From Patescibacteria group bacterium (GTDB taxonomy: Bacteria > Patescibacteriota > Patescibacteriia > 2-12-FULL-60-25): 64,000 bases of DNA. Position numbers and translations under genes: made by a program. The stretch covers positions 7,210 to 71,209 of the forward strand of contig JBAYJJ010000001.1 of NCBI GenBank assembly GCA_041665165.1, given 5' to 3'. The notes beneath the pieces were generated by a model. It did no database searches, had not been told where the DNA came from, and worked only from the letters and a program-made list of their open reading frames with translations. The stretch's first letter is position 1. Every line of letters begins with the position of its first letter. Below are positions 32,914-47,647 of the stretch, piece by piece.

Positions 32914-34101
32914 ATGGACCAAAAAGGCCTGACAATGATCCTGGTCACGAGCCAGGATTGGGGCGGCGTACAAGCCTATGTTTTGGATTTGGCTCTGGCT
33001 CTAAAGTCACGGGGTTTGCCGGTGATTGTTTGTGCAGGAAGACCCGAGAAGTTAGAAGTTAGAAGTTTGAAGTTAGACGTAGGACGAGAACTGGGCGATA
33101 AATGTCTAGAAGCAGGAATTGAGTTTATCGAGTTAAAAAGAATGATCCGTGACATTAACCCGATCTCAAATACGCGCGCTTTATTTGAATTGATCTCTTT
33201 GTTTAAAAAACATCAGCCGCATACAGTCCACTTGAACTCCAGCATGATGGGCGCAGTCGGATCTTTGGCAGCAAGAATCGCTGGTATTCAGCGCGTTGTA
33301 TATTGCATTGGCGGCTGGGCATTCAATGAGCAGATCTCCAGCTGGAAAAAAAGTCTTTACATAACAATCGAAAAAATCTCAGCGCGCTGGAAAGATGTGA
33401 TCATCTGCGTACACCCTGGCGATGAAAAACTGGCGTTGGACATAAAAATCAAACCGCGCGAAAAAGTCATGACCATCCCAAATGGCATTGACGTCAACTT
33501 ATTCCAATCTCAACTTCGTGATCGCGAAACCGCGCATTCGTTGTTAGCTGAACGATGTACGATGTACGATGTACGATGTACGGTTGTTGGCACGGTCGCC
33601 AATTCTTATCCACCGAAAAATCTTTTTTGGTATCTTGAAGTGTGCAAAACAATCACAGACAAGCACCCTGATTTCAAATTCGTGATTATCGGAGATGGCC
33701 CGCAGTTTGAAGAGTTGAAAGCCAAGCATGCGTCTCTGAATCTACAAGACAAGGTGATTCTGACAGGCCGCTTTGAATCAAAACTGCTTTACACGGCTTT
33801 TGATATTTCTGTCTTGCCTTCAACCAAAGAAGGCATGCCACTTGCAGTCTTAGAATCCATGGCTGCCAAAGTCCCCTGCGTCGTGACTGACGTCGGCGGG
33901 TGCAGATGGATGCTGCAGGACGAACAAGGCAGCGCTGGACTCGTGATCCCGCCAAACGACGACAAAGCCCTTGAGCAAGCTATCGAAAAACTTGCGTCAA
34001 ATTCCCTATTACGCCAAGAATTAAGCCAGCGCGCCTACAACCTAGTCACTGAGAAATTTAACTTGCAGGACACTCTGAACAAAACAATTGAAACACTGTG
34101 A
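32914..34101 (+). CDS. GT4 glycosyltransferase carrying two in-frame heptamer arrays
   Basis: 395 aa. MILVTSQDWGGVQAYV (an alternative start at 32935 is possible), then ...LPSTKEGMPLAVLESMAAKVPCVVTDVGG (EX7E). Two low-complexity inserts, KLEVRSLKLDVGRE and ERCTMYDVRCTVVG, are encoded by period-7 DNA. Confidence 0.8.
   Translation: MDQKGLTMILVTSQDWGGVQAYVLDLALALKSRGLPVIVCAGRPEKLEVRSLKLDVGRELGDKCLEAGIEFIELKRMIRDINPISNTRALFELISLFKKHQPHTVHLNSSMMGAVGSLAARIAGIQRVVYCIGGWAFNEQISSWKKSLYITIEKISARWKDVIICVHPGDEKLALDIKIKPREKVMTIPNGIDVNLFQSQLRDRETAHSLLAERCTMYDVRCTVVGTVANSYPPKNLFWYLEVCKTITDKHPDFKFVIIGDGPQFEELKAKHASLNLQDKVILTGRFESKLLYTAFDISVLPSTKEGMPLAVLESMAAKVPCVVTDVGGCRWMLQDEQGSAGLVIPPNDDKALEQAIEKLASNSLLRQELSQRAYNLVTEKFNLQDTLNKTIETL
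33048..33089. repeat. Heptamer array, 6 units (42 nt, in frame)
   Basis: GAAGTTA GAAGTTA GAAGTTT GAAGTTA GACGTAG GACGAGA. Confidence 0.8.
33552..33586. repeat. Heptamer array: (ACGATGT)x4 perfect plus one degenerate unit
   Basis: ACGATGT ACGATGT ACGATGT ACGATGT ACGGTTG, inside the GT4 coding frame. Confidence 0.85.
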
Positions 34102-34123
34102 TTTGCACTAGTTTCGAATCTTG

Positions 34124-34151
34124 AGTTACAAGTTACGAGCTACGAGTATTA
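34124..34151. repeat. Heptamer array in a spacer, reaching the stop codon of the convergent gene
   Basis: AGTTACA AGTTACG AGCTACG AGTATTA. The last unit contains the TAA (34149-34151, minus strand) of the Wzy_C-TPR gene. Confidence 0.7.
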
Positions 34152-36545
34152 GCGTCTCGGTCCGCCCTGGGTCGGTTCCTGGACAGTAGTGACAGGCGAA
34201 GCTTGAGTCTGGACTACGTTTATGCCTGTTGGCAACTGAGAAGTGCCGGGCGTGGTGGTAGTAGCCAACTTGATGGATTCATCTATTGTCTTAGCGCGTC
34301 CGTCAATCAAAGCCTGAAATTTAGGCTGGGATGTCGGGTCCATTTTGATGACTGCGCCCAAAATCATATCCCTTTGTTCCATAAGGCCCTGGTGTTCCAT
34401 GCTCTTGGCGATTTCTATATAACTTGCGGCCGGAGCAGCGGCTAAATTAGGAAGCATATCAAAAAGTTTTTTCAATCCTTCTTTGTCGTTTTCCATATCA
34501 TAAGCTTGAGCTACTAAAACCGCATCCTGGCCGCCGCGTAAACTAAACGGATGGGCAGCACTCATGGATTTGATTATATATTTTGCGCCCTCTTTCTGGT
34601 TGCCTAGGTCAAACCAGGTGCTCACGCCCACATACCACCAGCCCTCACCGATGCTCTCGTCAAACGAAGCAGCTTCTTTATATTTGTCCAAACCCTCTTG
34701 CGCTCTGCCCATTTGTATGAGCAGGCGGCCGTAGGCGAAGTACAACTGCTGTCTTTTCGGGCTCGTTTCAATAGCTCGCTTAAAATACGTCTCAGCTTCC
34801 TGATATAGTGCCGTGTTGTTAGTGGCCTGGCCTACGCTTTGTAAAAGGCTGGCATAAATAAACAGCGGATGGGTATTCATTCCATGCGATGCCAAGTGCC
34901 TCTTTGAAACATCCTGGATTAGGGCAAACATCTCTTTCCATTTCGGCCACTGCTGCAATGCTCCTCCATCTATCATGTTGATCATGTTCCTGGAATGCAG
35001 GAACGTCTGTTCATCCAGATACGGGGTTTGAATGACTGCTGCTTCTTTTGCATATGCCAACCACGATTCAGCATCTCCGCTTGCAAACGCATTATTGGAT
35101 TTTATACTCAGATACGAAGCATACGCAGGTAGTACTGAGGTGAAATACGCGATTAGGATAAAAATAACCTGCAAAATACCGAACGTAATCCAGGGTACTG
35201 GTTTTTGGGACGGAACTTTTTGAACGGCATTCGGGTCGGGCTGGCCTGAGAATATCGGAAACCCGATGCAAATCACAAAAGCATATAAGAGGAAGCTCAT
35301 GCTGAACGCAGCCGGATGGTCGAACACGAACAGGTTCTGCAGAAAATATCCGGCAGGCAAACCCATGAGAATTGCCGTGGTCGTAATGTCTATGAAGCGT
35401 TTTTTACGTGCACGAATGATTGACGCGTAAAGCAGGACCCAAACAGCAGCAAAAGTCAGGAAGCCCACGATGCCTGTCATGCTGATAACATCAAAAACCG
35501 TATTGTGCGCCCGGTCAAACCAGGTTTCATAATATCCGCTTTCCAAAGATTTTGGATTATAGTATTTATTGAACAGGATGTGAAAATCATCAAGGCCCCA
35601 GCCTGTTAAAGGCCGGGCTATAAAGCCCTCCCAGGCAATATTCCAGGCAATAAACCGCCCGGTTGTGCCGGTCTGCAAGCTGAACATGCGGGAAGCGGTT
35701 GGAAATTCTTTTGAAAACGATTGGAAAGCTTGGGTCTTGATGCCAACGGTCACAATTCCGACGTAACACAAGACGCCGGCAAAAATCACGGAAAATAGTA
35801 TTATCTTGATTTTTTTACTGCCCACCAGCACACCGACAGTGATTGCGGAAACGGCAATACCGAAAATCAAACCCATGAAAGGGCCTCTGGAACCGGCCGC
35901 GAACATGGCTCCCATGGAAAAAATAAAGGCCACGACATACCAAGCCCTCCATGCTACGGATTTATTTTTTACCCAGAGCAAGGCCAAGAAAAATAAGATG
36001 AAAATCTGGTATGCCCCCATGTAAATCGGGTTGTCCAGCAAGCCCCCTACTCTGCTGGCGGCCGGAAAAAGCAATAAGGCCGGGTAAGGTTTTTGGAGCA
36101 AAGCGACAATGGCCATGAACACGCCGAGAATCACTTGGTAATTCAGGAGCTTGTTCCACTGGGTCCAAGTTTTGATCACTGAAACCGTCATTGTCAGCCA
36201 AATGAAGAAATGCAAAAGCGTAAAAAAGCCGTTCATCCTTTCTTGATTTCCCCACCAGGCACGCACAGGATCCACAGCAAAGATAACCGACAAAAGCAGG
36301 GCTAAAAAATAGGCGCAGATGGCCAGATACAACATAGACTTTTTTGGCCGGAATTCAGGTTCGATCCAGGCTAAAATAATATATGCCGGAAAAGTCAGGC
36401 CGATCAAAACCTGGAAAAAAATCAATTTGGAGAAAACGAACGGGAAGATCACGACCGGCACAAACATCAGAGGCATAAGCAAGCCTCCGTAAATCCCTAC
36501 GTAAACCAATGCTTTCAGCATTTTAATGGCAGATTGTCTTTGCAT
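34149..36545 (-). CDS. O-antigen ligase/Wzy_C-domain membrane protein with C-terminal TPR repeats
   Basis: 798 aa. It has about 12 hydrophobic segments and a central FAAGSRGPFMGLI... region typical of Wzy_C. A soluble C-terminal TPR-like region (AETYFKRAIETSPKRQQLYFAYGRLLIQMGRAQEGLDKYKEA...) and a T/P/Q-rich tail follow. Confidence 0.7.
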   Translation of the reverse strand: MQRQSAIKMLKALVYVGIYGGLLMPLMFVPVVIFPFVFSKLIFFQVLIGLTFPAYIILAWIEPEFRPKKSMLYLAICAYFLALLLSVIFAVDPVRAWWGNQERMNGFFTLLHFFIWLTMTVSVIKTWTQWNKLLNYQVILGVFMAIVALLQKPYPALLLFPAASRVGGLLDNPIYMGAYQIFILFFLALLWVKNKSVAWRAWYVVAFIFSMGAMFAAGSRGPFMGLIFGIAVSAITVGVLVGSKKIKIILFSVIFAGVLCYVGIVTVGIKTQAFQSFSKEFPTASRMFSLQTGTTGRFIAWNIAWEGFIARPLTGWGLDDFHILFNKYYNPKSLESGYYETWFDRAHNTVFDVISMTGIVGFLTFAAVWVLLYASIIRARKKRFIDITTTAILMGLPAGYFLQNLFVFDHPAAFSMSFLLYAFVICIGFPIFSGQPDPNAVQKVPSQKPVPWITFGILQVIFILIAYFTSVLPAYASYLSIKSNNAFASGDAESWLAYAKEAAVIQTPYLDEQTFLHSRNMINMIDGGALQQWPKWKEMFALIQDVSKRHLASHGMNTHPLFIYASLLQSVGQATNNTALYQEAETYFKRAIETSPKRQQLYFAYGRLLIQMGRAQEGLDKYKEAASFDESIGEGWWYVGVSTWFDLGNQKEGAKYIIKSMSAAHPFSLRGGQDAVLVAQAYDMENDKEGLKKLFDMLPNLAAAPAASYIEIAKSMEHQGLMEQRDMILGAVIKMDPTSQPKFQALIDGRAKTIDESIKLATTTTPGTSQLPTGINVVQTQASPVTTVQEPTQGGPRR

Positions 36546-36574
36546 ATGGGCAATAGAATAACAGCCGGTATATA

Positions 36575-36608
36575 CAAAAACAAGACCCTTTGCAGGGTCT
36601 TGTTTTTT
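36575..36608 (-). terminator. Rho-independent terminator after the giant surface-protein gene (bidirectional shape)
   Basis: 8-bp stem CAAGACCC/GGGTCTTG (36581-36602) flanked by A5 and T6 runs. A second small hairpin TGCTTC-TTGC-GAAGCA sits next to it. Confidence 0.7.
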
Positions 36609-36643
36609 GCTTCTTGCGAAGCAGAGCCTATTTCCTTGCGGAA

Positions 36644-39600
36644 TTAGTTGCTCAATGAAGCGCTCGATGAGAGGTCTTCGACGTTGACGTCGTTGGACCA
36701 GTCGCGAGAGATGGTCGAAGGAATGCTACCCACTAATACTGCCGTTGAGGCATGTGGGACTTCCGAGTTGTCTGACCAGACAAACGTACCGAGCTTGAGG
36801 CTTGCACCTGGTGCACCGCCAGCAGCAGATTGATCTAAGTTGAAGATCGATGTGCTGGAGACAGCGAAGATGCCCGTGCTCTTGGTTGACAAGTAGCCAG
36901 TGACCACCGGGGCCGTTGGGTCGCGGTAGAATGAAGTGGTTACGTTGTTACCAGTGCCAGTGTAGGCCACAGTGGCGCGGAGCGAATAGATATTGCCCGA
37001 GCCGCTGATTGAATCCTCACCAGTGAAAGCAACGATAGCCTTAAAGCTGTTGACGCCAGCTTGGGTCTCCTGCTGCGCTGCCTTGATATCCGTGGCCGAA
37101 GTTGAGTTCACGATTGTGTACTCACCGGTCGGGACCAAGGTTGAGCCGCGATACAACCTGAATGAGCTCAAGCCCACGTTGGCTGACTTGGAGATGTTGA
37201 ACACCATCTGTTTCAAGGCAATGGAACCGGCTGAATCAGCGCCCACCTGAGCGCGATAGAGTTCGAGTTCACCGGCCGAGAGAACAGTGTTGGTCAAGTT
37301 CTGCTTGGTGACAACAGGCTTTGTCTTGCGGATGACCTGGGTGTTGCCAGCTGCTGCGCCTGAAGCTGCGTACACGCGCTCACCAGACGAAACGCCTGTG
37401 GTGCGGATGTTGAGCTTGGAAGCATAGTTGGTATCCCATTCACCAGTCTGCAAGTTGTCGCGGATGCCGATGCCAGGAGCATGGCCAGAGCGAGCCACAT
37501 TGGTGGTTGCGCCGTTGACCGAAGATGATGGCGAGACATTGGAAAGCTTGGCCCACAATTCAAAGTTGGTCGAGCTATCCTTAAGAACCGTGAACTCATT
37601 GCCTGTTAAATCAATGTCCACGCTGCCAATTGCGCCAGACGATAATACGTTGGAGCTCTTGATTGCGCCGCCTGTAGCTATGCCGATGGCTACGAAGTCT
37701 GCGTTATCGCCGCCGGTGGTCGAGCTGACCGTGATGCGATCGATCTGCATGTCTTCGTACTGAGCTGTAGCCTTATAGCGAGCAAACGGTACCCAGACGT
37801 CCTTACCAGCCACGACGATTGAAGTGGAAGGATGAGCGTCAGCAGACACCGTAATGTTACCCTTGGACAAGATTGTGGTGTAGACAGAAGGAGCGGCGCC
37901 CAACTGAGTGGTCTTCAAAGCGGTTGAAACGCTTGCAGTCACTGTGTTGGCGTCGTCGTCCTGAGCTGTGATATCACCGTTTGCAGCAATACCGACTTCA
38001 ACCTTGTCAAACGGTGCCGTTGTAGCTGCCGTTGAGGTGAAGGTGGCTTTGACTGTCAAATCCTTGGTCGTGCCCTTGAGAACCTTCAAATTCATGTTTG
38101 TGATTTGTGCGGTTCCAAGAGTCGTGTCCGGAGCCTTGGCAATACCGACTTGCGTGGCGCCATCCCACAGGGAGAGCGAAGCAACGCGGCTTACGCAAGA
38201 ACCAACGGCATAAGCCACACCAGCCAAGCTAGCCTTACAAGTCAAGGTCAGGTTAGTGATCGTGACATCAGACTGAGCACCGGCTGAGAGGGAAATGCCG
38301 ACTACTGACTTATTGATGGACTTTTTAACCACAGTGGCTGACACCGGGTTAGAGGCCAAATCAGCAGTCAAACTGGATGACTTGATGGTTTGCACGTTAC
38401 CAGCTGTTGAAGCATTCGGGACGATCTTGGTGATATCCAGGCTTTCACCAGTGGATACGACCTTGACATCGCCAGCGATGAACGGGCTGAAAGTAGCCTT
38501 GTACTTGTGCGTGCCATTCAAGTAGAACTCGTTGATTACATCTTCAGTGTTAGAGAGGTCAGCGGCCAGAGCCAAATTTAAGGTCGTGCCAGCCTTCAGG
38601 GTGAAGGTGTCATTGAAGACCAAAGCCTCGCTGGTTGAAGAAGCTGCCGAGGTCAATTCCTTGGGACCCATTATTGTTGCGCCCGTATCAAGATTATAAA
38701 TCTTGATGTTGCGGAAGTACTTTGTGCTGGCTGAGCCTACGATCAAGTCGTTGGCTGAGTTGCCGGCCAAAGTAAAGCGCAGATAGCGGATTTCCAAATC
38801 ATTGTCAGCAGATGTGAGTGCGAACTTGTAGAACGGAACTGACAATTTGCCCTTGGCTACGTTAGCCGACGGAGGACCGTTGAAAGCAAATGACAAGTTG
38901 CCGCCCTGAGTTGTGACTGATACGCCCTCAGCTGAAGTATCGAACGCAGAAATCGTGATGCTTGCACCTGAGTTATAGACAGTGTCTGTGGCGTTGATAT
39001 CAGCAGCGTACTCAATGTAGGTAACGATTGTGCGACCAGAGCGGCCAGCCACATCGCCACGGAGTGAGAATACGCGCGTCACACCATTCGGGATGAGATA
39101 CGCAGTGTCGAAAGTGAGCACGATCTGGCCCTTGGCATTGATCGAAGCGGCAGAAGCCACCTTGGTCGAACCCTGGTACAGTTCAAAGTTGCTCAAATCC
39201 GAGTTGTCCACCGTGCCGCCCTGATACAGAGCCACGCGGTTGACGCGGATATCATTGGTGTTGGCTGTGAGTTTGAAGCTTGAGATCTCAACATTCTTGG
39301 AACCGATGACCGGGTTGGCCGGGGTCGGGCCTGGTTGAATGGTGAGTGTGCCGGCCGATGAAGCACCGATGACAAACACATTGCCGCGGACCGGGAAAGA
39401 ACCCGAGACCGTGCCTGTGCCTGTGAGCACTACACTGGCTGCATCAACCAATTCGAAAGCATGATTGCCTCCGGTTACGGTTGGGCTGTTGAAGTCAGCA
39501 TAAACATAGTATGACTTCATGCCTCCAGCCGGAATCGTGACGTTCAACGAGTTGAACTCAGTGACATTGGTGGTGGCATTTACCGAGCGGCCCGTGGTTA

Positions 39601-40519
39601 AACGGTTGCCGTCCTGGTCATACAAGTAGACGTTGGCGAAATCTGAAGTTGAACCGACACCTACGCGATGGAAGCGCATGCCGGAGACCAAAGCGTCAGC
39701 ACTGCCGGCAGTCAAGTTGACCTTGACCATCGGGACGCCCATGGCGTTCTTCGGAACTGTTGCGCCAGACGGGGTATCAGAGGCCAAGGCCACTGTTACG
39801 CTGCCGTTGACTGAAGTTGAACCGCTGCCGCATGAAACGGACCAGAAGTTATCAGCTTCCAAGCCAGTCACGTCTGCACCGTCAGGATACGAGATCGTGG
39901 TGGTGATGACATTGATGGCATTGAACTTGTTGTCTGTTAAAGCAGTACCAGCAAGCTTGCGCTTCTGTCCATTCATTACTACGTAGCGATTTGCATCGCC
40001 GGCATAGGTAACGAGCGAACCATCCGGGTGGACGTTCGATGAGACTGAAGCACCAGTCGTGTAGTTGACGAAGAATGAATCAGGCACGTCGATGACGCGC
40101 GTGGCCCAAGCATCTCCATAGAGGGCCTTGGCAATGGCTTCGGATTCGATCCAATGCAAGGTTCCGCACTTGGTGACGGCATAGGTCTTAGGGTCTGTGG
40201 TGATCTTCACGAGCTTGGTGCCCGGGCGGACCGTCACATTGCCCCCAATCATGATGGCAGCGAGTTCTGCATCTGTAATTGTTTTAACAGCTGAGAAATC
40301 GTTATACCAAGAGAAGTACGTCTTTTCATCTGGGAAAACATAGCGTTTTCCATCGGTGGCGTAGAAGTACACTGCTGGACCCGAAGCCTTGATCAAGTCG
40401 CCATTTACTAAAGTGGCTGCCTGAGCTGAGACTGGGAAAGCTAATGCACCGGCTCCGACTGACCAAAGAATGGTCACGAAAGAGACGACCGCGGAAAAGA
40501 CTTTCTTTAATGAATTCAT
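36644..40519 (-). CDS. Giant secreted surface protein (S-layer/adhesin-like, S/T/A/G/V/N-rich)
   Basis: 1291 aa. Has an N-terminal signal peptide MNSLKKVFSAVVSFVTILWSVGAGALAFPVSAQA and no other hydrophobic segments. Beta-rich repetitive modules are of the type (...SGATV...VKVNLTA..., ...FKLTAN..., ...FALTSAD...). It is moderately G+C-rich (33/60 on 37081-37140). Confidence 0.8.
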   Translation of the reverse strand: MNSLKKVFSAVVSFVTILWSVGAGALAFPVSAQAATLVNGDLIKASGPAVYFYATDGKRYVFPDEKTYFSWYNDFSAVKTITDAELAAIMIGGNVTVRPGTKLVKITTDPKTYAVTKCGTLHWIESEAIAKALYGDAWATRVIDVPDSFFVNYTTGASVSSNVHPDGSLVTYAGDANRYVVMNGQKRKLAGTALTDNKFNAINVITTTISYPDGADVTGLEADNFWSVSCGSGSTSVNGSVTVALASDTPSGATVPKNAMGVPMVKVNLTAGSADALVSGMRFHRVGVGSTSDFANVYLYDQDGNRLTTGRSVNATTNVTEFNSLNVTIPAGGMKSYYVYADFNSPTVTGGNHAFELVDAASVVLTGTGTVSGSFPVRGNVFVIGASSAGTLTIQPGPTPANPVIGSKNVEISSFKLTANTNDIRVNRVALYQGGTVDNSDLSNFELYQGSTKVASAASINAKGQIVLTFDTAYLIPNGVTRVFSLRGDVAGRSGRTIVTYIEYAADINATDTVYNSGASITISAFDTSAEGVSVTTQGGNLSFAFNGPPSANVAKGKLSVPFYKFALTSADNDLEIRYLRFTLAGNSANDLIVGSASTKYFRNIKIYNLDTGATIMGPKELTSAASSTSEALVFNDTFTLKAGTTLNLALAADLSNTEDVINEFYLNGTHKYKATFSPFIAGDVKVVSTGESLDITKIVPNASTAGNVQTIKSSSLTADLASNPVSATVVKKSINKSVVGISLSAGAQSDVTITNLTLTCKASLAGVAYAVGSCVSRVASLSLWDGATQVGIAKAPDTTLGTAQITNMNLKVLKGTTKDLTVKATFTSTAATTAPFDKVEVGIAANGDITAQDDDANTVTASVSTALKTTQLGAAPSVYTTILSKGNITVSADAHPSTSIVVAGKDVWVPFARYKATAQYEDMQIDRITVSSTTGGDNADFVAIGIATGGAIKSSNVLSSGAIGSVDIDLTGNEFTVLKDSSTNFELWAKLSNVSPSSSVNGATTNVARSGHAPGIGIRDNLQTGEWDTNYASKLNIRTTGVSSGERVYAASGAAAGNTQVIRKTKPVVTKQNLTNTVLSAGELELYRAQVGADSAGSIALKQMVFNISKSANVGLSSFRLYRGSTLVPTGEYTIVNSTSATDIKAAQQETQAGVNSFKAIVAFTGEDSISGSGNIYSLRATVAYTGTGNNVTTSFYRDPTAPVVTGYLSTKSTGIFAVSSTSIFNLDQSAAGGAPGASLKLGTFVWSDNSEVPHASTAVLVGSIPSTISRDWSNDVNVEDLSSSASLSN

Positions 40520-40822
40520 AATAATACTAATGTATTGTTGTTTTGCAGGAATAAATTTCCCGCTAATTTTGAATGAGTGACCCTTCCCTCCCGCCGTTGG
40601 CGGGAATCGACCTTTTTTGGAGGATCGTGGTACGTCATTTTTACGAACGACGTGTCGTGGCGAGGATTTAACATCTGCGGGCGCTGGAGTTCGAGATCCC
40701 TGTGTTTGTGGGAGTCCGGCAAGGATACGTTCAAGGCAAACGCCGAGTCCGCAACCAAGCTCTTCTTCCCCCGCCCGTCAAGGCATCCGTCTGAGACAGG
40801 TGCCTTGTTTAGAGGGGAAGAC
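40520..40822 (-). other. 303-nt G+C-rich untranslated spacer upstream of the surface-protein gene (candidate structured leader)
   Basis: There is no convincing ORF. On the minus strand, nested hairpins are CTTCCCC..AAGGCA-loop-TGCCTT..GGGGAAG and CCCGCC-AA-CGGCGGG. There is no Shine-Dalgarno sequence before the ATG, and TAGTAT lies 4 nt upstream of the ATG. Confidence 0.4.
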
Positions 40823-41959
40823 TTATTTTGTTTGTGTTTGTGTTGAGCTGGATGTGTTAACGGGCGATGTGCTGCTGCCTGACGCTGTGCCAGGAAGCGC
40901 CCCCGACGTACTCGAGGCTGCTCCAGCCACCAATTTCACATCGCTTTCCTCTAATGTTTTTTGGGCCGTGAAGACTTGCGTGGTTCCGGTTTTTATTAAA
41001 TCCACTGCTTCATCAATTTTATTTTCTGATACGAGCTTATCTGCACTGGAAAATGTTTTCTGAGCCTCTGCAACCTGCTTGATGGCTGTGCTGGCTGGCG
41101 TTGATGTGCCAGACGCTTGCAACAGATTGCAATTACCGCAAGTAGTGCTGGTCGCCAAACTCAAAGTCTCGGCGATTGTGCGCACCACAGATTCATTGTG
41201 GTTCTTTATGGCATCAACCATATCTTGCTGGGTGACTGCGCCTGAATCTTGCTGATGAGCGTCGGCTAGCACTTCCAAAGCTTTCACAGCCGTATCAGAT
41301 GCGGCCATTTGCGCTTCAGAAACTTTTGCCTTATCTTCGGGAGACAAGTCCTGCTTGCTCTCCTGCAAAGTCTGGACAACCGTAGCAGCCTGTTGATCAA
41401 CAACCTTGGCCACGTCTTTAACCTTGTCCGGCGAAACAACATTCTTCGTATCTTCCAATTGCTGCTTCAGTGTATGCAAATCGCGCTTGAGAACCTCAGC
41501 GGTTTGGACAATTTTATTTGACCTGTCAGCCGAGGGCTTGGCAATCGCCAGCTTCATTTCATCAACGCGGCGGCCCGTAAATTCGGATTTAAGCAAAACT
41601 TTATCTTCTGGATTTTTAGCCAAAGCCAAGCGCGCTTGTTCGGTTGCGAGCTTGACGCTGTATAAAAGATCACCAGGCAAAGATTGTTCTGCCGCAGAAA
41701 CAGAAAGCAACGAGCCGCCGAAAAGGGCTAGCAAAATGCCGACGATCGCGAATGCAGGAGTGCGCAACCATTTGAACGAAAAAACCGGAGCTAAATATTT
41801 CATCAGATCCAAAGGTGAGCTGGCTGTTTCTTTCGGCAATGTATTTTTTACCTGCATCAACAAAATAGACCGAGTGTCTTTCTTCCACTGTTCGTTCGGT
41901 TCGACTTGGCGCACGGCCAGTCTTATATCTTTAATTTTCTTGAAAAGATTGTAGTTCAT
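40823..41959 (-). CDS. DUF5667-type membrane-anchored protein (putative anti-sigma partner)
   Basis: 378 aa with an ATGA overlap onto the sigma gene. It has one TM segment (FAIVGILLALFGGSLLSV) followed by the hallmark LPGDLLYSVKLATEQARLAL, a coiled-coil-like extracytoplasmic region, and an S/T-rich tail. Confidence 0.55.
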   Translation of the reverse strand: MNYNLFKKIKDIRLAVRQVEPNEQWKKDTRSILLMQVKNTLPKETASSPLDLMKYLAPVFSFKWLRTPAFAIVGILLALFGGSLLSVSAAEQSLPGDLLYSVKLATEQARLALAKNPEDKVLLKSEFTGRRVDEMKLAIAKPSADRSNKIVQTAEVLKRDLHTLKQQLEDTKNVVSPDKVKDVAKVVDQQAATVVQTLQESKQDLSPEDKAKVSEAQMAASDTAVKALEVLADAHQQDSGAVTQQDMVDAIKNHNESVVRTIAETLSLATSTTCGNCNLLQASGTSTPASTAIKQVAEAQKTFSSADKLVSENKIDEAVDLIKTGTTQVFTAQKTLEESDVKLVAGAASSTSGALPGTASGSSTSPVNTSSSTQTQTK

Positions 41960-42519
41960 GTTTCAAAACCTTTCATGGCTTTTAAAGCTTTCATGCCCCG
42001 GTGATAAATGACCCTGACATTCCCTGGCGCCTTGCCCAAGACAATGCCGATATCAGAGAATGACAACTGGTCAATCAACCTCAAGGCAAGCACGTCGCGA
42101 TAATCTTCCTTTAACATCTCTAACTGTTTAAGAATCAATGACACCTCTGATCTGGCTTCCATAATCTCTTTACCGCGGCCTACGTCATCTAACAGAGTAG
42201 ACGCGAATTCAGCCTGTTCTGTTACAGAGTCCAAACTAGTAGTCTTGTCTGAGTTGCGATAAAAATCAGCTATTTGGTTCCTGCAAATCCTGTAGAGTAG
42301 GGCCCGAATATTAGTAACTGGCTTAGGTTGTTGCAAAAATTGCCATAATTTAGTAAAAACTTCAGCCGTAATATCCTGTGCATCTTCTTGCTTAGGCAGC
42401 TTCAAAATCGCGAATCTATAAATAGAGGACACGTAGTTATCGTAAATTTTAGCAAAAGCTTCAGGGTCCTTCTTGACCTTAAGCCGGTATAATAAATAAC
42501 GGTCTATTAATTGGCTCAT
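41956..42519 (-). CDS. ECF-type sigma-70 family RNA polymerase sigma factor
   Basis: The track start at 42546 is a GTG lying inside a heptamer array; the ATG at 42519 gives MSQLIDRYLL.... Region 2 is SSIYRFAILKL...AQDITAEVFTKLW and region 4 is DVLALRLIDQLSFSDIGIVLGKAPGNVRVIYHRGMKALK. Confidence 0.8.
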   Translation of the reverse strand: MSQLIDRYLLYRLKVKKDPEAFAKIYDNYVSSIYRFAILKLPKQEDAQDITAEVFTKLWQFLQQPKPVTNIRALLYRICRNQIADFYRNSDKTTSLDSVTEQAEFASTLLDDVGRGKEIMEARSEVSLILKQLEMLKEDYRDVLALRLIDQLSFSDIGIVLGKAPGNVRVIYHRGMKALKAMKGFET

Positions 42520-42530
42520 TTTGCTTATCT

Positions 42531-42607
42531 TAAACGCTGAACGCACAACGCTAAACCCTAAACGCGTCGAAGCCTAAGGGTTAAGGGTTAAGCTTTAAGG
42601 GTTAAGC
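42531..42607. repeat. Heptamer array, 11 units in two sub-arrays, immediately upstream of the sigma gene
   Basis: TAAACGC TGAACGC ACAACGC TAAACCC TAAACGC GTCGAAG CCTAAGG GTTAAGG GTTAAGC TTTAAGG GTTAAGC. Confidence 0.8.
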
Positions 42608-42678
42608 TGATTTAGTAGGTCTAGATTGCCAGAAAAACCCATAAATATCAATGCCTAAAGCACTTATTTTGATGATAC

Positions 42679-42718
42679 TTGACGTTTTTTCTTTTTATGT
42701 CTAATCTATTCTAGACAT
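42679..42718 (+). promoter_or_regulatory. Sigma70-type promoter with an overlapping inverted repeat (possible operator) for the HTH gene
   Basis: TTGACG (42679-42684), an exact 17-nt spacer, then TAATCT (42702-42707). The inverted repeat ATGTCTA-N8-TAGACAT (42697-42718) overlaps the -10 element. Confidence 0.5.
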
Positions 42719-42722
42719 AACT

Positions 42723-42995
42723 ATGGAAAACTCGCCTATCCGTTTAAGTATTTCCCAGGCCGCACGCCTTTTTGGCATATCTGATCGCACTCTGCGCCGA
42801 GCAATCAGCTCTAACCAAATTAGATATGTAGTCGTGAAAAATCGATATCAACTTAACTTCGAATCCGTGCTGTCTTGGTCACAATCCAAACCCAAAGTTT
42901 TAAATAAACTTGAAAAGCAAGGCATAGGCCAATGGGTGGAGAAGTGGAAGATCAAAAATCCAAAATTCTCTCCTCGTCCGCCCCAAACCAACTGA
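42723..42995 (+). CDS. Small excisionase/MerR-type HTH DNA-binding protein
   Basis: 90 aa. LSISQAARLFGISDRTLRRAISSNQIRY is a helix-turn-helix, and the C-terminal tail is basic. Confidence 0.6.
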   Translation: MENSPIRLSISQAARLFGISDRTLRRAISSNQIRYVVVKNRYQLNFESVLSWSQSKPKVLNKLEKQGIGQWVEKWKIKNPKFSPRPPQTN

Positions 42996-43059
42996 CAACT
43001 CTAAACTTACAACTTACAAGAGCGTTCTGGTTACTCTTGTCAGTTGTACGTTGTCAGTT
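42990..43059. repeat. Inverted pair of heptamer arrays forming a long imperfect hairpin between convergent genes
   Basis: The left array is AACTGAC AACTCTA AACTTAC AACTTAC AAGAG and the right array is CTCTT GTCAGTT GTACGTT GTCAGTT. The reverse complement of the right array (AACTGAC AACGTAC AACTGAC) mirrors the left one. The left array includes the TGA at 42993-42995. Confidence 0.75.
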
Positions 43060-43071
43060 TTTGGTGTTTGA

Positions 43072-44289
43072 TCAAATAATTGACTTGTAGATTTTTTCGA
43101 GTTTATCGAGATGGTCATTCCAATTGAATTTTTTAACAAATTCTCCAGCCGCTTTTCCCATTGCGATCCTTTCGCCTTGATACATCCTTTCCATTTTTGA
43201 GATTGCAGCCACCCAAGATTCTACCTGGCCTGGTTCGGCCAAGAAGCCGGTCTTGCCATCCTCAACCATTTCTGGCAGGCCGCCGATTCTTGATGCAATC
43301 ACCGGCAGATTCATGCCCATGGCTTCGAGGACCGTGAGCGGCGCATTTTCATACCAGACCGACGGTATGAGCATGGCCTTTGCATTCACCCGAATGTTTT
43401 CCAGATCTTTGCCTGTTTTAAATCCCAAAAATTCTATGCACCCAGGCGCCAATCCGCGCGCCAAAGTCTCAAGCCTGATTTTTTCCGGGCCCGAACCTAT
43501 GATCTGAACTTTTATGTCTTTCAATAAAGCTGCGGCGCGAATTATTGTTTCAACGCCTTTTTCAGGGTACAGCCGGCCGACAAAAATATACGATCCATTC
43601 TCATTCCCCAGCGCTTTGACAGAATTTTCGTCAGCTGGATTCGGCACATACTGAAATTTGCCGGGTGGCTCGCCCCATTCAACCATCTTGTCCATCAAAA
43701 AGCGCGAAGGCGAAATAAACGTTGAGATTGTTTTTTCGTATGACTGAGAAACTTTAGTCATGCCCATTTCTAAAGCGCCCAAAATATTCGGCGCTATTCC
43801 GTTGAATAAGCATTGATGTGCGATCGCCTGATAATATTTCCCTCCCTTGCATCTTTCGCAAACTTGGCCTTGTGTGAACATCTTATAATTCGGACAAGCC
43901 AGCTTGTAATCATGCAAAGTCTGGACTGCTGGCACTTGCTTTTGCCTGATCACTTTAAGGATGCTGCTTGATAGATGGTGATAGATGTTGTGCAAATGAA
44001 CCACATCCGGCTTGACTTCATCGATCATCCTGGCAAGTTCGCGCGCCGCCTCGCTGTTCCATAAAAAGTTTTTAGCTTTTTTCGCATCTTTCGCCAGACC
44101 TTCGCGCTTGTCATAGGCATAGCGCGTAACGAAGTACTGGCTATCAAGGGATGGACGATTGCCTTCGCTCTTGGTGGAAAATATATGGACTTCATGCCCT
44201 CTGGCCTTTAATTTTTCCATCAAGGCAGGTATGTAAAACTCCGGCCCGCCGCGGTAATCAAAAAATTTATTTACTTGCAAGATTTTCAT
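43072..44289 (-). CDS. GT4 glycosyltransferase with a Cys-rich insertion
   Basis: 405 aa. MKILQVNKFFDYRGGPE, a CPNYK...CERCKGGKYYQAIAHQC insertion, and ...IPSVWYENAPLTVLEAMGMNLPVIASRIGGLPE (EX7E). Confidence 0.8.
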   Translation of the reverse strand: MKILQVNKFFDYRGGPEFYIPALMEKLKARGHEVHIFSTKSEGNRPSLDSQYFVTRYAYDKREGLAKDAKKAKNFLWNSEAARELARMIDEVKPDVVHLHNIYHHLSSSILKVIRQKQVPAVQTLHDYKLACPNYKMFTQGQVCERCKGGKYYQAIAHQCLFNGIAPNILGALEMGMTKVSQSYEKTISTFISPSRFLMDKMVEWGEPPGKFQYVPNPADENSVKALGNENGSYIFVGRLYPEKGVETIIRAAALLKDIKVQIIGSGPEKIRLETLARGLAPGCIEFLGFKTGKDLENIRVNAKAMLIPSVWYENAPLTVLEAMGMNLPVIASRIGGLPEMVEDGKTGFLAEPGQVESWVAAISKMERMYQGERIAMGKAAGEFVKKFNWNDHLDKLEKIYKSII

Positions 44290-46037
44290 ACATGGAAGAT
44301 GGTTGATGTTTTAATGGCTTCGGCCGAAAAAGGCGCCGGTAAATCCCCTTGTCCCAACATTTTTCGATAGAGGCCGGCATAGGCCTGAGCCATTTTTTCT
44401 TCGGAAAACTCATTCCACTTTTCTTTCATGGCCGTGGCATTGGCTTTAGCCACAAAATACATTGGCTTGTTCAGTACCTCTGCCAGCGCCTGCTGCAAAT
44501 CCTCCTCGCTGTTCGGTTTAACGAAAAGGACTTCATCTTGGTCAAATAGTTCTTTCAGCGGCCCTATGTCCGAAGCCACAATCGGCAAGCCAGCGACTGC
44601 AGCTTCAATCACAGCCAGGCCCAAGCCCTCCCACAAAGAGGGGAAGACAAAGACATCGTATTCAGCATACAAGTCAGCTGTGCTCACATTGCCCAAAAAT
44701 CTGACCCTGGCTTCAAGACTGAGCTGAGCGACTAAGCCTTCGAGCGCTGGTCGCAAACTGCCGCTGCCAGCGATATCCAATTTCCAGGGTCGTTTGATAT
44801 TGGCCAAAGCGCGCAAAAGCAGGATTGGATTTTTTTGTTCTTCCAGCCGTCCGACAAACAAGACGCGCGGCACGTCATGGAAAGGGCTAGCTGACCTTTT
44901 TTTGATTTTTGATAGGTCAATGCCGTTGTAAATGACTTTTATCTTTTCCTTTTTTATCCAGTAATCGCGCGCCATGTGTATTTTGACCTGATTGGAAACC
45001 GCCACATATGCGTCGCTGAAGCCGGAAAGCAGAATCAAGCTGACGCGCCCCAAAGTTCCATAATCGCAAAAAACATTATGCTCGGTCGTGATAACTCTTT
45101 CTGCTCCGGCAAACTTGGCTGCCAGCCTGCCCCAAGTATCAGACGCGAAAAGATGGGTATGCACGATCTGCGGCTTAAGATTTTTCAGGATATTGATCAG
45201 CTCGAAAAATATCTTGATTCGGCCATAACCTGGCACACGCTCAAGCTTGATGTAGTTTATGCCTTTGCTTTTTATCCTAGATTCAAGCGCGCCGCCGCTG
45301 ACTAAGCTGAGCATCATTGTCTCAAAACCGAGCTCTGGCAGTTTCTCGGACAGGTTCATGGCCACGATTTCTGCGCCGCCCATCAAAAAAGTCGGGAGCA
45401 CTTGCAAAACCAACGGGGATTCGGAAGAAGGGAAGAGCTCCAAGAGCCAGGCCCTGGAAAAATATTCAGGCAAACAGGCGGCAGTCAGCCCGTCCAGCCA
45501 ATCTGTAAGATGGAAATATTTATCTTTTTTCAAGCCTTTGCTACCGGACGCAATCCCTAAATTCATTGATCTAAAAACTCTAAAAGCATGTCCTCTTGTC
45601 GCATCTCTGATTTTTTCAAGCTTTTCCTTTTTCGATTCGACTTTGACGAACAGCCGGCCATTGTCTTTGATCTTGTTTTTTAATGCATCCAAAACAGACA
45701 AATCAAAATCAGGGGACACGATTGAATTGAATGTCTTGTTCGGCAGCTGCTCAAAATTGCCGATTATTCCGTTGAGTTCCAAGCCCGCGGCCGCAGCGAT
45801 TTCCTTGGCTTGTTCAAGATCCTTGTCCGAATCAAATGTCGCGGTCACTTGCATGCCCAAGGCCAAAAACGGAAGCGCGAGCTGAGGATCTTTGTTGCAC
45901 AAAATCGCGATGCCACAAGCTTCGTCGCTTGATTCCCAATGCCGGAGCGCGCCTTGCACGTAAAAATCCAACTCGCGCAGACCACCGAGCCGACGGTAGT
46001 GATTGCTTAAAGAGTGATAAGGTTGAGTTGGACGCAT
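44286..46037 (-). CDS. GT4 glycosyltransferase with an N-terminal Rossmann/methyltransferase-like domain
   Basis: The track start at 46046 is a TTG; the first ATG is at 46037. The N-terminal ~200 aa is GIAILCNKD...LGMQVTATFDSDKDLEQAKEI.... The C-terminal part is LQVLPTFLMGGAE...FPSLWEGLGLAVIEAAVAGLPIVASDIGPLKE. Confidence 0.7.
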   Translation of the reverse strand: MRPTQPYHSLSNHYRRLGGLRELDFYVQGALRHWESSDEACGIAILCNKDPQLALPFLALGMQVTATFDSDKDLEQAKEIAAAAGLELNGIIGNFEQLPNKTFNSIVSPDFDLSVLDALKNKIKDNGRLFVKVESKKEKLEKIRDATRGHAFRVFRSMNLGIASGSKGLKKDKYFHLTDWLDGLTAACLPEYFSRAWLLELFPSSESPLVLQVLPTFLMGGAEIVAMNLSEKLPELGFETMMLSLVSGGALESRIKSKGINYIKLERVPGYGRIKIFFELINILKNLKPQIVHTHLFASDTWGRLAAKFAGAERVITTEHNVFCDYGTLGRVSLILLSGFSDAYVAVSNQVKIHMARDYWIKKEKIKVIYNGIDLSKIKKRSASPFHDVPRVLFVGRLEEQKNPILLLRALANIKRPWKLDIAGSGSLRPALEGLVAQLSLEARVRFLGNVSTADLYAEYDVFVFPSLWEGLGLAVIEAAVAGLPIVASDIGPLKELFDQDEVLFVKPNSEEDLQQALAEVLNKPMYFVAKANATAMKEKWNEFSEEKMAQAYAGLYRKMLGQGDLPAPFSAEAIKTSTIFHV

Positions 46038-46043
46038 AACTAT

Positions 46044-46155
46044 CAATTAAAAATTCAAAATTGATAATTCAAAATTCAGGAGGCCTTTGGCTTTTATCTG
46101 GTAATCCGCGAAGCGGCACATGAACTTTGAATTTTGCATTTTTAATTTTGAATTA
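46044..46155. repeat. Inverted pair of AT-rich heptamer arrays flanking a 42-nt core
   Basis: The left array (46044-46078) is CAATTAA AAATTCA AAATTGA TAATTCA AAATTCA. The right array (46121-46155) is TGAACTT TGAATTT TGCATTT TTAATTT TGAATTA. TGAATTT is the exact reverse complement of AAATTCA. The right array covers the stop codon and last codons of the 46142 gene. Confidence 0.75.
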
Positions 46156-47647
46156 TTTCAGTTTCATTCGTCTCAAATATCTTAAGCGCAGCGAACAGGA
46201 TTCCGATGGGCAGCCAAAGATGGGCCGTCCAATAAGCTGTGTTGAAAAACTGATAGATGACAGCGCCCGCGGCACTGGCCGCCAAAATCACGCACACAAT
46301 CCGGGCCGTATCCTTCATGGGCTTGATTTTGGAAAACGCCAGCCAAAAACTTTCCAAAAGCACTAAGGCATAGGCAATGAGCCCCAGCGCGCCGGTTTCA
46401 GTCATAAGCTTTTGCGCAAACCCGTGCGCATCCAGCGGGGCGCCGAATTCCTGGGCAAACACTTGGGCATTAGCCACGCGCCCCAAAAAAGTGCCGGCAC
46501 CGCTGCCAATGACGGGCTGTTCCAAAAAAGAATAATAAGCGATTTCAGACAGCATCAAGCGCGTTGCATTTGAATCTTGCGCTGTGCGCGAAAAACTGAA
46601 ATATAATTGGAAGATGGCGAGCGGCGTGATGATCAAAATCAAAGTCGCGATCTCAAAAGCATATTGTTTTATCTTGTGCCTCCACAGAGTCAGCATCAAA
46701 AACACGATCTGGATGATCAGCACGATCCAGGCTGTGCGCGCCAAAGTCAGCAATGCGACAAGAGCTTGGAGGGCCGCCGCACCATACAGAAGATGGCGCG
46801 TGCGTGATTTTTTCGCCAGATATGCCAAAGCCAAAGTGCTCGGCGCAGTGAACAATAAAGTCTCAGCCAAAAGATTATGATTGTTGCCGAACAAATCAAA
46901 TCCAAACAAAGGTATGGGATGGGCGCGCCTGATTGTTTGGTTTGTGAACTCAAGGCTTACCAAAGACAACAACCCATCAACAGATGCGATAAGCCCAACT
47001 GTTGTCAAAATGCCCAGCGCGGCTTTAAGGCGCCGCAGAGATCTGATCAAATTGGCTGGCAAAGCAATGAATGCCACATAGCAAAAAACTACGGGTCGTA
47101 AAATAAATTTCAAGATTAAAACCGGATCCGGGCCATACGAGCTAAAAATTGAAATCAGATGTGCTGCAACCAATCCCAGATACGAACGCCAGATTGGCAA
47201 TTGAGGTTTCCAATTCGTGTCCCTGCGTCTGAACCAAAGAATGAAAACTTTAATGGCCCACGCCCCTATCACTAAGACCAAAAAGATTTCCCCCAGAAAA
47301 AGATCAATTGATCCGGCAAAGGCACTTTCTGCTGTGTCTGAAGTTCCTAATGGCACAGATACGGTCAAACCCAGCATGCAAGACAAAAAAAGCGCTATAT
47401 ATAGAAAAAAATACGTATATCTGTATGCCAAAATCATGCCTAAAATGGCGCAACCCAGCAAAACTGGGCCAAAAGGTAGGCCAAAAGCGACTAAAACTGA
47501 ACCAATGAACAAGACTAAAAACACTCCCCAGGAAAGCAAGGGCAAACTCCTGATTTTTTCGCTCAACCAAGGCGTTTTTAAGGCTTTAACGCTTTCCTCC
47601 ATTGTCCTAAAAGCATACCATGAGTTAGCCCTGGTAAAAAAGTGCAT
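46142..47647 (-). CDS. O-antigen ligase/polymerase-like (Wzy_C) membrane protein
   Basis: 501 aa with at least 10 hydrophobic segments. The central LTLARTAWIVLIIQ... region is typical of the O-antigen ligase family. Confidence 0.65.
   Translation of the reverse strand: MHFFTRANSWYAFRTMEESVKALKTPWLSEKIRSLPLLSWGVFLVLFIGSVLVAFGLPFGPVLLGCAILGMILAYRYTYFFLYIALFLSCMLGLTVSVPLGTSDTAESAFAGSIDLFLGEIFLVLVIGAWAIKVFILWFRRRDTNWKPQLPIWRSYLGLVAAHLISIFSSYGPDPVLILKFILRPVVFCYVAFIALPANLIRSLRRLKAALGILTTVGLIASVDGLLSLVSLEFTNQTIRRAHPIPLFGFDLFGNNHNLLAETLLFTAPSTLALAYLAKKSRTRHLLYGAAALQALVALLTLARTAWIVLIIQIVFLMLTLWRHKIKQYAFEIATLILIITPLAIFQLYFSFSRTAQDSNATRLMLSEIAYYSFLEQPVIGSGAGTFLGRVANAQVFAQEFGAPLDAHGFAQKLMTETGALGLIAYALVLLESFWLAFSKIKPMKDTARIVCVILAASAAGAVIYQFFNTAYWTAHLWLPIGILFAALKIFETNETEIIQN

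Follow-up and report, generated by a model that had tools for sequence, protein, structure and literature searches.

A 64-kb stretch of Patescibacteria DNA (64,000 nucleotides of contig JBAYJJ010000001.1, hereafter the window) carries a cassette of four genes, which encode an extracytoplasmic function (ECF) sigma factor, a DUF5667 membrane protein, a 1291-aa secreted protein and a 798-aa protein that joins a Wzy_C domain to tetratricopeptide repeats (TPRs). We tentatively favor the interpretation that this cassette encodes the major wall-anchored surface protein of the Uhrbacteria together with the enzyme that glycosylates it. All coordinates given here are positions within the window, and the cassette genes are on its minus strand. 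The four codirectional genes that the initial annotation had placed at 34149-42519 are all present there as minus-strand open reading frames (ORFs) (Table 1).

The recurrence of this gene order is far beyond chance. Its conservation in related genomes, which the initial annotation had left to be checked, was examined in 80 loci taken from a scan of one genome per species, with counts made only where the flanking DNA sufficed, and the order recurs in nearly all of these ~80 species-representative genomes. The sigma gene is located upstream of the 1291-aa gene in 71/71 evaluable loci and the DUF5667 gene in 69/71. The Wzy_C-TPR gene is found downstream in 58 of 60 loci (within 3.2 kb), and immediately downstream, within 1.5 kb, in 56 of them. 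A convergent GT4 glycosyltransferase gene, the fifth conserved member of the cassette, follows Wzy_C-TPR in 52/54 loci. The synteny holds across species-level genomes with the 1291-aa protein at 42-96% identity, and the gene tables of four long contigs agree with it. Full-length relatives of the 1291-aa protein number at least 1,385 (50-89% identity), and those that are named are all "hypothetical" proteins from Patescibacteria or Candidatus Uhrbacteria; at least 579 relatives are present in the one-genome-per-species scan. Beyond the conserved GT4 gene, the glycan genes vary among genomes and include an Asn-synthase homologue, epimerases and radical-SAM enzymes, and the trio upstream of the cassette (a second Wzy_C protein of 501 aa and two GT4 enzymes) is also kept in about half of the loci, including L001 and L003.

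The two loci with no homologue of the 798-aa protein belong to a distant group in which the large protein is ~32% identical. In L080, which encodes a 32%-identical relative, the large gene is followed by the gene for a 240-aa TPR protein and then directly by that for a 710-aa Wzy_C protein. In L081, left out of the locus counts because its tblastn match ended too early, a stand-alone TPR protein follows the large gene and precedes an IS200 transposase. Because the split form is found in the distant L080 and L081, the association of surface protein, TPR and Wzy_C appears to be older than the TPR fusion. The TPR part thus constitutes a separate gene at L080 4164-7015, where it lies upstream of Wzy_C, and at L081 14210-15599, an arrangement that represents domain fission. 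Genes for IS200-type transposases, seen after the TPR gene in L081, are also located between the surface-protein and Wzy_C genes in L001 and L005 (L001 14055-14642).

The product of the large gene is, as the initial annotation had it, a secreted Ser/Thr-rich protein. It has a Sec-type signal peptide, and Ser and Thr together make up 22.3% of its residues, compared with 11.4% in the other 39 genes of the window; these residues are spread evenly along the chain and are not confined to linkers. The mature protein has a pI of 5.7 and contains 0.3% Cys, a composition typical of surface layer (S-layer) proteins. Neither the protein nor its N-terminal region matched a Pfam or NCBIfam family, also when Pfam was searched at E<=10, and a profile of the family searched against PDB sequences returned nothing meaningful. 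The codon bias of the gene is the strongest of the 40 genes in the window (effective number of codons, Nc, 40.8, against a median of ~53 and 55.6 for the Wzy_C-TPR gene), and a strong terminator equivalent to the one that follows it in the window lies within 200 nt of the surface-gene stop codon in 54/64 loci. At the sequence level, the codon bias and the dedicated terminator point to high expression from a largely monocistronic gene. The AlphaFold2 (AF2) model of residues 35-1234 has a mean predicted local distance difference test score (pLDDT) of 86.8 and a predicted TM-score (pTM) of 0.45, as for well-folded domains on a flexible string, and consists of an N-terminal alpha/beta region of ~195 residues followed by ~ten beta-sandwich domains. 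Foldseek matched this model to the immunoglobulin (Ig)-like domains of PrgB, to a mastigoneme, to SspB/SpaP, to alpha-2-macroglobulin and to integrin legs; no solved S-layer protein was among the structural matches. The protein is probably an abundant, wall-anchored surface protein. Its C-terminal block (residues ~1235-1291; 36644-36815, minus strand), GTFxWSDNSEVPH...SRDW.ND..V.DL, is almost invariant and contains no familiar sorting signal.

The most conserved part of the protein is the ~125-aa module within its N-terminal region, where the invariant columns cluster at residues 40-160. Among 1.8 billion cluster representatives, phmmer with the module alone found 4,414 (E<=1e-3), typically at 60-70% identity. 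The module is mostly located straight after the signal peptide but is sometimes C-terminal or duplicated, and the proteins that harbor it range from 186 to 1565 aa. Its partners in the 88 proteins scanned include Big_7, Big_1 and fn3 domains, peptidases C25 and S11 (the latter a D-Ala-D-Ala carboxypeptidase), DSBA/thioredoxin, chagasin, Kazal inhibitors, the GSDH sugar dehydrogenase and ice-binding-like domains. We therefore regard the module as a candidate general cell-wall anchoring or targeting domain of the Patescibacteria. There is no second copy elsewhere in the window. The distant group has extra module-bearing genes near the cassette (L081 15613-17376 and 18152-19726; L082 ~9091-9423), among them those for a Big_1/invasin-like protein and for a subtilase with the module at its C terminus.

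The 798-aa protein contains a Wzy_C domain (PF04932; 65.7 bits against a cut-off of 31.7, E=5e-18), the loop of which (residues 267-349) is extracytoplasmic and connects transmembrane helices 9 and 10. Its AF2 model (pLDDT 84.3, pTM 0.80) shows a 13th transmembrane helix at residues 452-475, at the start of a set of helices (452-763) with pLDDT above 90, and a disordered tail of ~35 residues. With Foldseek, the membrane part matches the WaaL structure 7TPG with E=4.9e-5 and a TM-score (target) of 0.65 over 446 columns, and a profile of the Wzy_C-TPR family finds 7TPG by sequence as well (E=8.9e-10). All 25 homologues compared share R220, R297 and H347, and the sequence contains the motif H-N-x9-G-x-x-G. 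By position and motif, without superposition, these residues correspond to the catalytic residues R215, R288 and H338 of Escherichia coli WaaL and R224, R298 and H349 of PglL (PMC3643930). The TPRs are weak in Pfam, and against solved consensus TPR proteins they give E=1e-15 with the single sequence and 2e-40 with the profile; structurally, this part matches the substrate-binding TPRs of OGT and SPINDLY (SPY). Given the WaaL topology and the extra helix, the TPR domain is predicted to lie on the outer side of the membrane together with the catalytic loop.

The spacer in front of the surface-protein gene, described in the initial annotation as long, measures 303 nt and is not empty, as it contains conserved blocks and hairpins. 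A leader of ~230-500 nt occupies the equivalent position in L002-L082. Across the loci, its 5' part consists of UUCCCC, the hairpin P1, GACGGGCGGGGGAA, GCCCGCUCGU and AUCCUCGCCA, and its 3' part of AAAGGUCGA with a hairpin, UUAUUCA, a further hairpin and a hairpin that bears an AGG(G)U ribosome-binding site. The blocks keep this order in nearly all loci, and AAGGTCGA is found with at most one mismatch in 74/75 of them; AAAGGUCGA, AUCCUCGCCA and UUAUUCA are invariant single-stranded blocks. The hairpin after AAGGTCGA is present in 72 of 73 loci as 69 distinct sequences, with stems of 5-20 bp. P1 is 95.9% paired and displays compensatory changes in 7/10 pairs. When P1 and the ACGGGCGG/CCGCUCGU helix were tested together, 90.4% of positions were paired, compared with 39-46% when the structure was slid along the sequence, and the covariation score was 0.44 vs 0.23 in shuffles, none of 500 of which reached the observed value. 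The leader of the window folds at -102.6 kcal/mol (z=-4.78). In the RNAalifold consensus fold only P1 and a helix between a C-run and a G-run were recovered. This C-run helix (P0) requires the same G-run as P2, the ACGGGCGG/CCGCUCGU helix, so that the two compete, and the G-rich strand, GGCGGGGG, has three possible pairing partners; from this base-pairing potential, the leader may adopt alternative structures. There was no relevant Rfam match at the gathering cut-off or at E<=5, and no further copy of the leader or its blocks in the window or in 1.6 Mb of related loci, where exact occurrences of AAAGGTCGA elsewhere lie within coding sequence at chance frequency. The leader is an unclassified structured RNA motif with a clear associated gene. 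In some of the longer spacers (L005, L006, L036, L038 and L012), short tandem repeats such as GTACCTA x4, TGGTAAT x3, CACGACT x4 and GGAAGCT x4 are found 5' of the conserved RNA blocks.

The sigma factor scores 78.7 on the NCBIfam ECF superfamily model TIGR02937 (cut-off 42.9). The ORF listing places its start at GTG 42546 (42546..41956); homologues align from ~residue 10, and thus the start is probably ATG 42519, as given in the initial annotation. The DUF5667 gene overlaps the sigma gene by 4 bp, an arrangement of translational coupling, and its product has one transmembrane helix (residues ~66-87) that separates a K/R-rich 61-residue N terminus on the cytoplasmic side from the extracytoplasmic DUF5667 domain. 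The DUF5667 protein is a candidate anti-sigma factor. A search down to E<=10 found no anti-sigma domain family in it, and a literature search on DUF5667 turned up nothing specific. In the window, as in most loci, the protein ends in a low-complexity tail rich in Ser, Thr and Pro (40823-40930, minus strand), which may itself be glycosylated. Upstream of the sigma operon, the strict pattern CTTGNNN-N16-18-TANNNT is present in 34/72 loci (mean of 3.1 and maximum of 8 in shuffles) and a looser form in 66/72 (22 in shuffles), and the corresponding site in the window resembles a housekeeping sigma-70 promoter. A small HTH_17 (MerR/excisionase-like) regulator gene is divergent from the operon and is found at the same place in L001, L002 and L003, the three long contigs checked. 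Between the two, about a dozen loci contain, by eye, a palindrome of the form TTGTCNACAATANTGTNGACAA, which is probably the operator of the HTH_17 regulator.

In the mechanism that we propose, the 1291-aa protein would be exported by Sec and held at the cell wall by its N-terminal module, with the ~ten Ig-like domains projecting outward as an S-layer-like or fibrillar coat. Its mRNA would carry the ~300-nt structured leader and its own terminator, as for a highly expressed gene. The catalytic loop and TPR superhelix of the WaaL-fold GT-C enzyme would both face outward; the TPR domain would bind the exported surface protein, and the enzyme would transfer, in one piece, a glycan pre-assembled on undecaprenyl pyrophosphate to Ser/Thr (or Tyr) residues. 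This glycan would be built by the neighboring GT4 enzymes, in the window genome maybe capped with a pseudaminic-acid derivative, with either the ABC exporter or a Wzx-type protein as its flippase. The ECF sigma factor and the DUF5667 membrane protein, encoded in the same direction, would form a conserved envelope-signaling pair. That the acceptor is a protein, and not a lipid or polysaccharide, is something we infer, as is the identity of the glycan. A protein acceptor is favored because TPR fusion and fission track the protein gene, because the second Wzy_C protein is a candidate polymerase, and because bacteria of the Candidate Phyla Radiation (CPR) are reported to lack a lipid A-core acceptor (PMC5220378).

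The initial annotation had suggested that the sigma/anti-sigma pair controls the surface protein. On this view, the ECF sigma factor, once freed from the DUF5667 anti-sigma protein, would directly transcribe the surface gene from an ECF promoter in the spacer. The invariant codirectional order of sigma, DUF5667 and surface genes is in keeping with such control, and short-spacer genomes hold GGGGGAAC...CGTG, which resembles an ECF -35/-10 pair. We nevertheless consider it improbable. Motifs of the type GGAAC-N14-18-CGT upstream of 40519 occur in 5/75 leaders, against 5.3 in shuffles. In the short forms, 12-14 nt separate the two elements, but in most genomes (the window among them) inserted hairpins of differing length widen the gap to 40-100 nt; conserved blocks spaced in this way are incompatible with a fixed -35/-10 spacing. 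Moreover, the GGAAC-like motif is itself base-paired with the CGT-like one, and the changes in these pairs are one-sided (G·U/A-U). An ECF promoter in the spacer was rejected on these grounds: shuffle-level counts, variable spacing and the mutual pairing. In addition, the DUF5667 protein has no recognizable anti-sigma domain, and the promoter of the sigma operon is of the housekeeping type, not clearly of an autoregulated ECF type. A sigma-70 consensus scan of 34000-43200 gave 8 sites (9.3 expected), none of them in the spacer. In many genomes, the first leader helix starts 10-25 nt past the DUF5667 stop codon, which leaves no room for a promoter there, and no terminator intervenes. The short gap and missing terminator indicate that the surface gene is probably read from further upstream, via the sigma operon or an unconserved promoter inside the DUF5667 gene, and the leader would then act after transcription. 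A separate alternative concerns the surface protein itself: instead of forming an S-layer lattice, it could be a fibrillar adhesin or a spacer with which the bacteria, probably epibionts, attach to particles or host cells; it may still be glycosylated by the neighboring enzyme. The flexible string of Ig domains would suit such a role, the structures matched best come from filaments and adhesin stalks (PrgB, mastigoneme, SspB/SpaP) with no solved S-layer protein among them, and the same N-terminal module would anchor many unrelated proteins. On the other side, full-length conservation is unusually high for an adhesin (hundreds of species share 50-70% identity across 1,290 residues), the gene is single copy at a fixed locus, and its codon bias is the strongest in the window. 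Some S-layer proteins, such as Sap of Bacillus anthracis, likewise consist of an anchor module and several beta-sandwich domains. An adhesin is a serious but less probable explanation.

The more direct competitor of protein glycosylation is that the Wzy_C-TPR protein ligates or polymerizes a secondary cell-wall polysaccharide (SCWP) or lipoglycan. Products of the conserved GT4 genes, together with the second Wzy_C protein, would make this polymer, which would be the wall ligand of the N-terminal module; the genes would be kept together since anchor polymer and anchored protein work jointly. S-layer genes adjoin wall-polymer loci in Firmicutes, and Wzy_C-type proteins have been implicated in SCWP synthesis in B. 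anthracis. TPR domains and scaffolds also occur in polysaccharide export, and a high Ser/Thr content is usual in Ig-rich surface proteins, whether glycosylated or not. The best structure and profile match is the WaaL ligase, labeled "polymerase/ligase" by its depositors, glycan genes are kept around the cassette (the GT4 gene and, in about half of loci, the upstream trio), and a near-invariant module in thousands of proteins implies a conserved ligand. Several further observations weigh against a protein O-oligosaccharyltransferase (O-OTase). PglL_A (PF15864), the motif that separates PglL from WaaL, was not found in a Pfam scan at E<=0.01, and the enzyme is therefore not filed as a PglL-family member; no NCBIfam O-OTase or ligase model matches it. 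The terminator between the surface and Wzy_C-TPR genes indicates that they are not tightly co-expressed; the two genes do adjoin, as the initial annotation noted, but this terminator qualifies its "immediately downstream." The Wzy_C-TPR gene also lies within a large polysaccharide-type gene region, and Schulz et al. counted such a setting against O-OTase function. Neither BLAST nor simple sequence comparison tells WaaL-type ligases from O-OTases, and Wzy-type polymerases, which also carry Wzy_C, are likewise indistinguishable by sequence (PMC3643930). The fold, the catalytic residues and the location in a glycan region fit both possibilities. Against the polysaccharide alternative, the 501-aa Wzy_C protein with its GT4 enzymes is already available as polymerase, which would make the TPR-fused one redundant; the TPR/Wzy_C pair tracks the protein gene even when split, as in L080; the fused and split TPR arrangements match known S-layer O-OTases; and a module found in >4,400 clusters across the Patescibacteria would more plausibly bind a universal component of the wall than the polymer of a lineage-specific cassette. 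Lipid A-core is an unlikely acceptor because the CPR genomes studied so far have no lipid A and lipopolysaccharide genes (PMC5220378). Finally, adjacency to the target gene is a validated predictor of O-OTases, seen for 21/31 pglL homologues and confirmed for ComP (PMC3643930). Of the O-glycosylation proposal in the initial annotation, the conserved cassette, the S-layer O-OTase architecture and the adjacency to a target thus stand, while the inseparability of WaaL and O-OTase sequences, the missing PglL_A motif and a WaaL as the only relative with a solved structure keep a wall-polysaccharide ligase or polymerase in contention. We regard the wall-polysaccharide enzyme as a real but less likely alternative to glycosylation of the surface protein, the reading that we retain.

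The cassette is embedded in a glycan region for which the initial annotation gave ~13 glycosyltransferase modules; we count ~11-12, plus the two Wzy_C genes. The two Wzy_C proteins have no pairwise BLAST similarity, and an origin as recent paralogues was rejected on this basis. An adjoining pseudaminic acid (pse) pathway had also been proposed. PseB, PseC and PseI score above their cut-offs (Table 1), but they are not adjacent to the cassette, being 25-40 kb away, and a scan of the window proteins detected no PseF (CMP activation), PseG or PseH; these may lie outside the window or be replaced by FemAB-like and PIG-L-like enzymes. The distance of the pse genes, together with the variability of the neighborhood past the GT4 gene, counts against their part in the proposed glycosylation, and involvement of pseudaminic acid is possible on the basis of proximity within the 64-kb glycan region. 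The region also encodes an 896-aa fusion of a B12-binding radical-SAM enzyme and a GT4-type domain (18643-21333, plus strand); in L001, the radical-SAM enzyme is a separate gene. Two secreted proteins (47733-49694, plus strand; 50551-52422, minus strand) contain long Gly/Ser/Thr low-complexity tracts (GGTSTGGSSGTGG...) and Cys-rich modules. Their genes have a GC content of 61-64%, compared with ~47% for the window, and the second has a MopE-like metal-binding motif. General O-OTases have a preference for Gly/Ser/Thr tracts of this kind.

Table 1. Features of the cassette, its leader and the surrounding glycan region (positions within the 64-kb window)
Feature	Position	Strand	Basis or remark
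ECF-type sigma-70 factor, regions 2 and 4 only	41956..42519	-	Pfam Sigma70_r2, r4_2
DUF5667 protein, single-pass membrane	40823..41959	-	PF18915, 45.4 vs cut-off 27, E=1e-11
Candidate promoter of sigma operon, housekeeping sigma-70-like	42623..42651	-	TTGATA-N17-CAATCT
HTH_17 (MerR/excisionase-like) regulator, divergent from sigma operon	42723..42995	+	Pfam, E=5.5e-7
Conserved structured RNA leader ("long spacer"), 303 nt	40520..40822	-	
Leader block UUCCCC	40819-40814	-	
Leader hairpin P1	40806-40780	-	CAGGG...CCCUG
Leader block GACGGGCGGGGGAA	40779-40766	-	
Leader block GCGCCCGC	40684-40677	-	
Leader block AUCCUCGCCA	40667-40658	-	
Leader block AAAGGUCGA	40615-40607	-	followed by hairpin 40605-40589
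Leader block CUCAUUCA	40577-40570	-	followed by hairpin 40561-40548, then start codon
1291-aa surface protein ORF	36644..40519	-	no Pfam or NCBIfam family
Signal peptide MNSLKK...PVSAQA/ATL	40418..40519	-	read from translation; KK, hydrophobic segment residues 10-28, AQA/A
N-terminal alpha/beta region, residues 35-235	39815..40417	-	holds the ~125-aa module
~125-aa module, within residues 35-165	40025-40417	-	
~Ten Ig-like beta-sandwich domains, then conserved C-terminal block	36644..39814	-	
Intrinsic terminator	36576-36607	-	14-bp stem between A and U runs; between surface and Wzy_C-TPR genes
798-aa Wzy_C-TPR ORF	34149..36545	-	
WaaL-fold GT-C membrane domain, residues 1-430	35256..36545	-	12 transmembrane helices
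TPR superhelix with 13th transmembrane helix, residues 452-763	34257..35192	-	~nine TPR-like repeats
GT4 glycosyltransferase, fifth conserved member	32914..34101	+	Pfam; convergent, downstream of Wzy_C-TPR
GT4 gene of upstream module	43072-44289	-	Pfam; module spans 43072..47647
GT4 gene of upstream module	44286-46046	-	Pfam
Second Wzy_C protein, 501 aa	46142-47647	-	Pfam
PseI	866-1951	+	NCBIfam, 458 vs 340
PseC	7623-8753	-	NCBIfam, 508 vs 423
PseB	9937-10950	-	NCBIfam, 439 vs 408
MsbA/PglK/HepA-like ABC exporter	13078-14892	-	
BFO_1060/Capsule_synth-like transferase	15229-16740	+	weak match, 35 vs cut-off 200 bits

The formation and structure of the CPR envelope were described in 2017 as aspects that "remain unclear" (PMC5220378). 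Our literature searches on Uhrbacteria surface proteins found no paper, and those on S-layer glycosylation and O-antigen ligase in Patescibacteria and Uhrbacteria found nothing specific. With this cassette, an entire class-level lineage (matches in at least 579 species-level genomes) gains a concrete candidate for its main surface protein, and the question of how ultra-small, uncultivated bacteria build an outer coat gains a testable handle. The candidate anchor module would allow the Patescibacteria surface proteome to be predicted from sequence, and the 798-aa enzyme, if active, would be a protein O-OTase acting on folded Ig-like domains and a possible glyco-engineering tool. The most far-reaching view, that the cassette is a core Uhrbacteria envelope module with an undescribed wall-anchor domain, a cis-regulatory RNA and a TPR-fused O-glycosylating enzyme all at once, is one that we consider rather unlikely in this complete form. 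If it is true, the ~125-aa domain serves the Patescibacteria as SLH and CWB2 serve Firmicutes, an RNA of ~250-300 nt sets the output of the main surface gene through alternative pairings at its G-rich strand, and a TPR-fused WaaL-fold enzyme O-glycosylates folded Ig-like domains outside the cell.

Comparison with known systems shows that the arrangement is, in kind, like the established O-glycosylation of S-layers, and that what is new is the CPR setting, a surface protein and an anchor module that belong to no family, and the leader RNA, none of which was found described in the literature searched. The closest parallels are the S-layer glycosylation (slg) loci of bacteria with, as in the Uhrbacteria, a single-membrane envelope. 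WsfB of Paenibacillus alvei has a C-terminal TPR domain, as does PglL, whereas for WsaB of Geobacillus stearothermophilus the TPR protein WsaA is encoded just upstream (PMC2943079). By described architecture, the TPR part fused C-terminally to the Wzy_C enzyme in the window resembles the P. alvei SpaA/WsfB system, and the TPR gene just upstream of Wzy_C in L080 resembles the G. stearothermophilus SgsE/WsaA-WsaB system. The slg loci place a separately transcribable OTase gene among glycosyltransferase genes (PMC2943079), and GT4 genes likewise flank Wzy_C-TPR here. The Uhrbacteria surface protein has no detectable sequence relationship to SpaA or SgsE, and its anchor module is new and not SLH. 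The Uhrbacteria cassette, in which glycosylation is a prediction, further departs from the slg loci by its ECF sigma factor, its DUF5667 gene and its leader RNA.

In the Tannerella forsythia S-layer, formed by TfsA and TfsB and modified by a general protein O-glycosylation system, the O-glycan ends in a pseudaminic or legionaminic acid derivative, and the locus joins nonulosonic acid (NulO) synthesis genes, glycosyltransferases and a NulO transferase (PMC5420450, PMC5378307, PMC6120980). The window shows a likeness in the transferase that weakly matches the BFO_1060 family, far under the cut-off. T. forsythia is a Gram-negative member of the Bacteroidota with a known sequon, whereas the pse genes of the Uhrbacteria genome are distant from the cassette. 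PglL and PilO (TfpO) share the Wzy_C core with its R, R and H residues, and their genes often adjoin a co-oriented protein target (PMC3643930). PglL_A was not detected in the 798-aa enzyme, and PilO also has no PglL_A. PglL/PilO act beside a pilin, whereas the candidate target in the Uhrbacteria is a 130-kDa multi-Ig protein, and the Uhrbacteria TPR domain, with its ~nine repeats, is much longer than theirs. WaaL (PDB 7TPG/7TPJ) has the same 12-helix GT-C fold and Wzy_C loop as the 798-aa protein but lacks the 13th helix and the TPRs, and its acceptor is lipid A-core. The joining of a TPR superhelix to a glycosyltransferase, in which the repeats hold protein substrates, is also found in OGT and SPINDLY. 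This is an analogy of design, with no catalytic homology, as these are soluble GT-B enzymes that use nucleotide sugars, unlike the GT-C membrane protein described here. The TMTC O-mannosyltransferases are further TPR-bearing protein glycosyltransferases. Lastly, the SLH and CWB2 domains of Firmicutes are, like the Uhrbacteria module, short conserved units that recur at the N or C terminus of numerous unrelated secreted proteins, the main surface protein among them, and such swappable anchor modules have been described (bioRxiv 10.1101/2025.04.02.646754). The Uhrbacteria module has no sequence or Pfam relationship to either of them, and its candidate role as a wall anchor is proposed by analogy with these domains.

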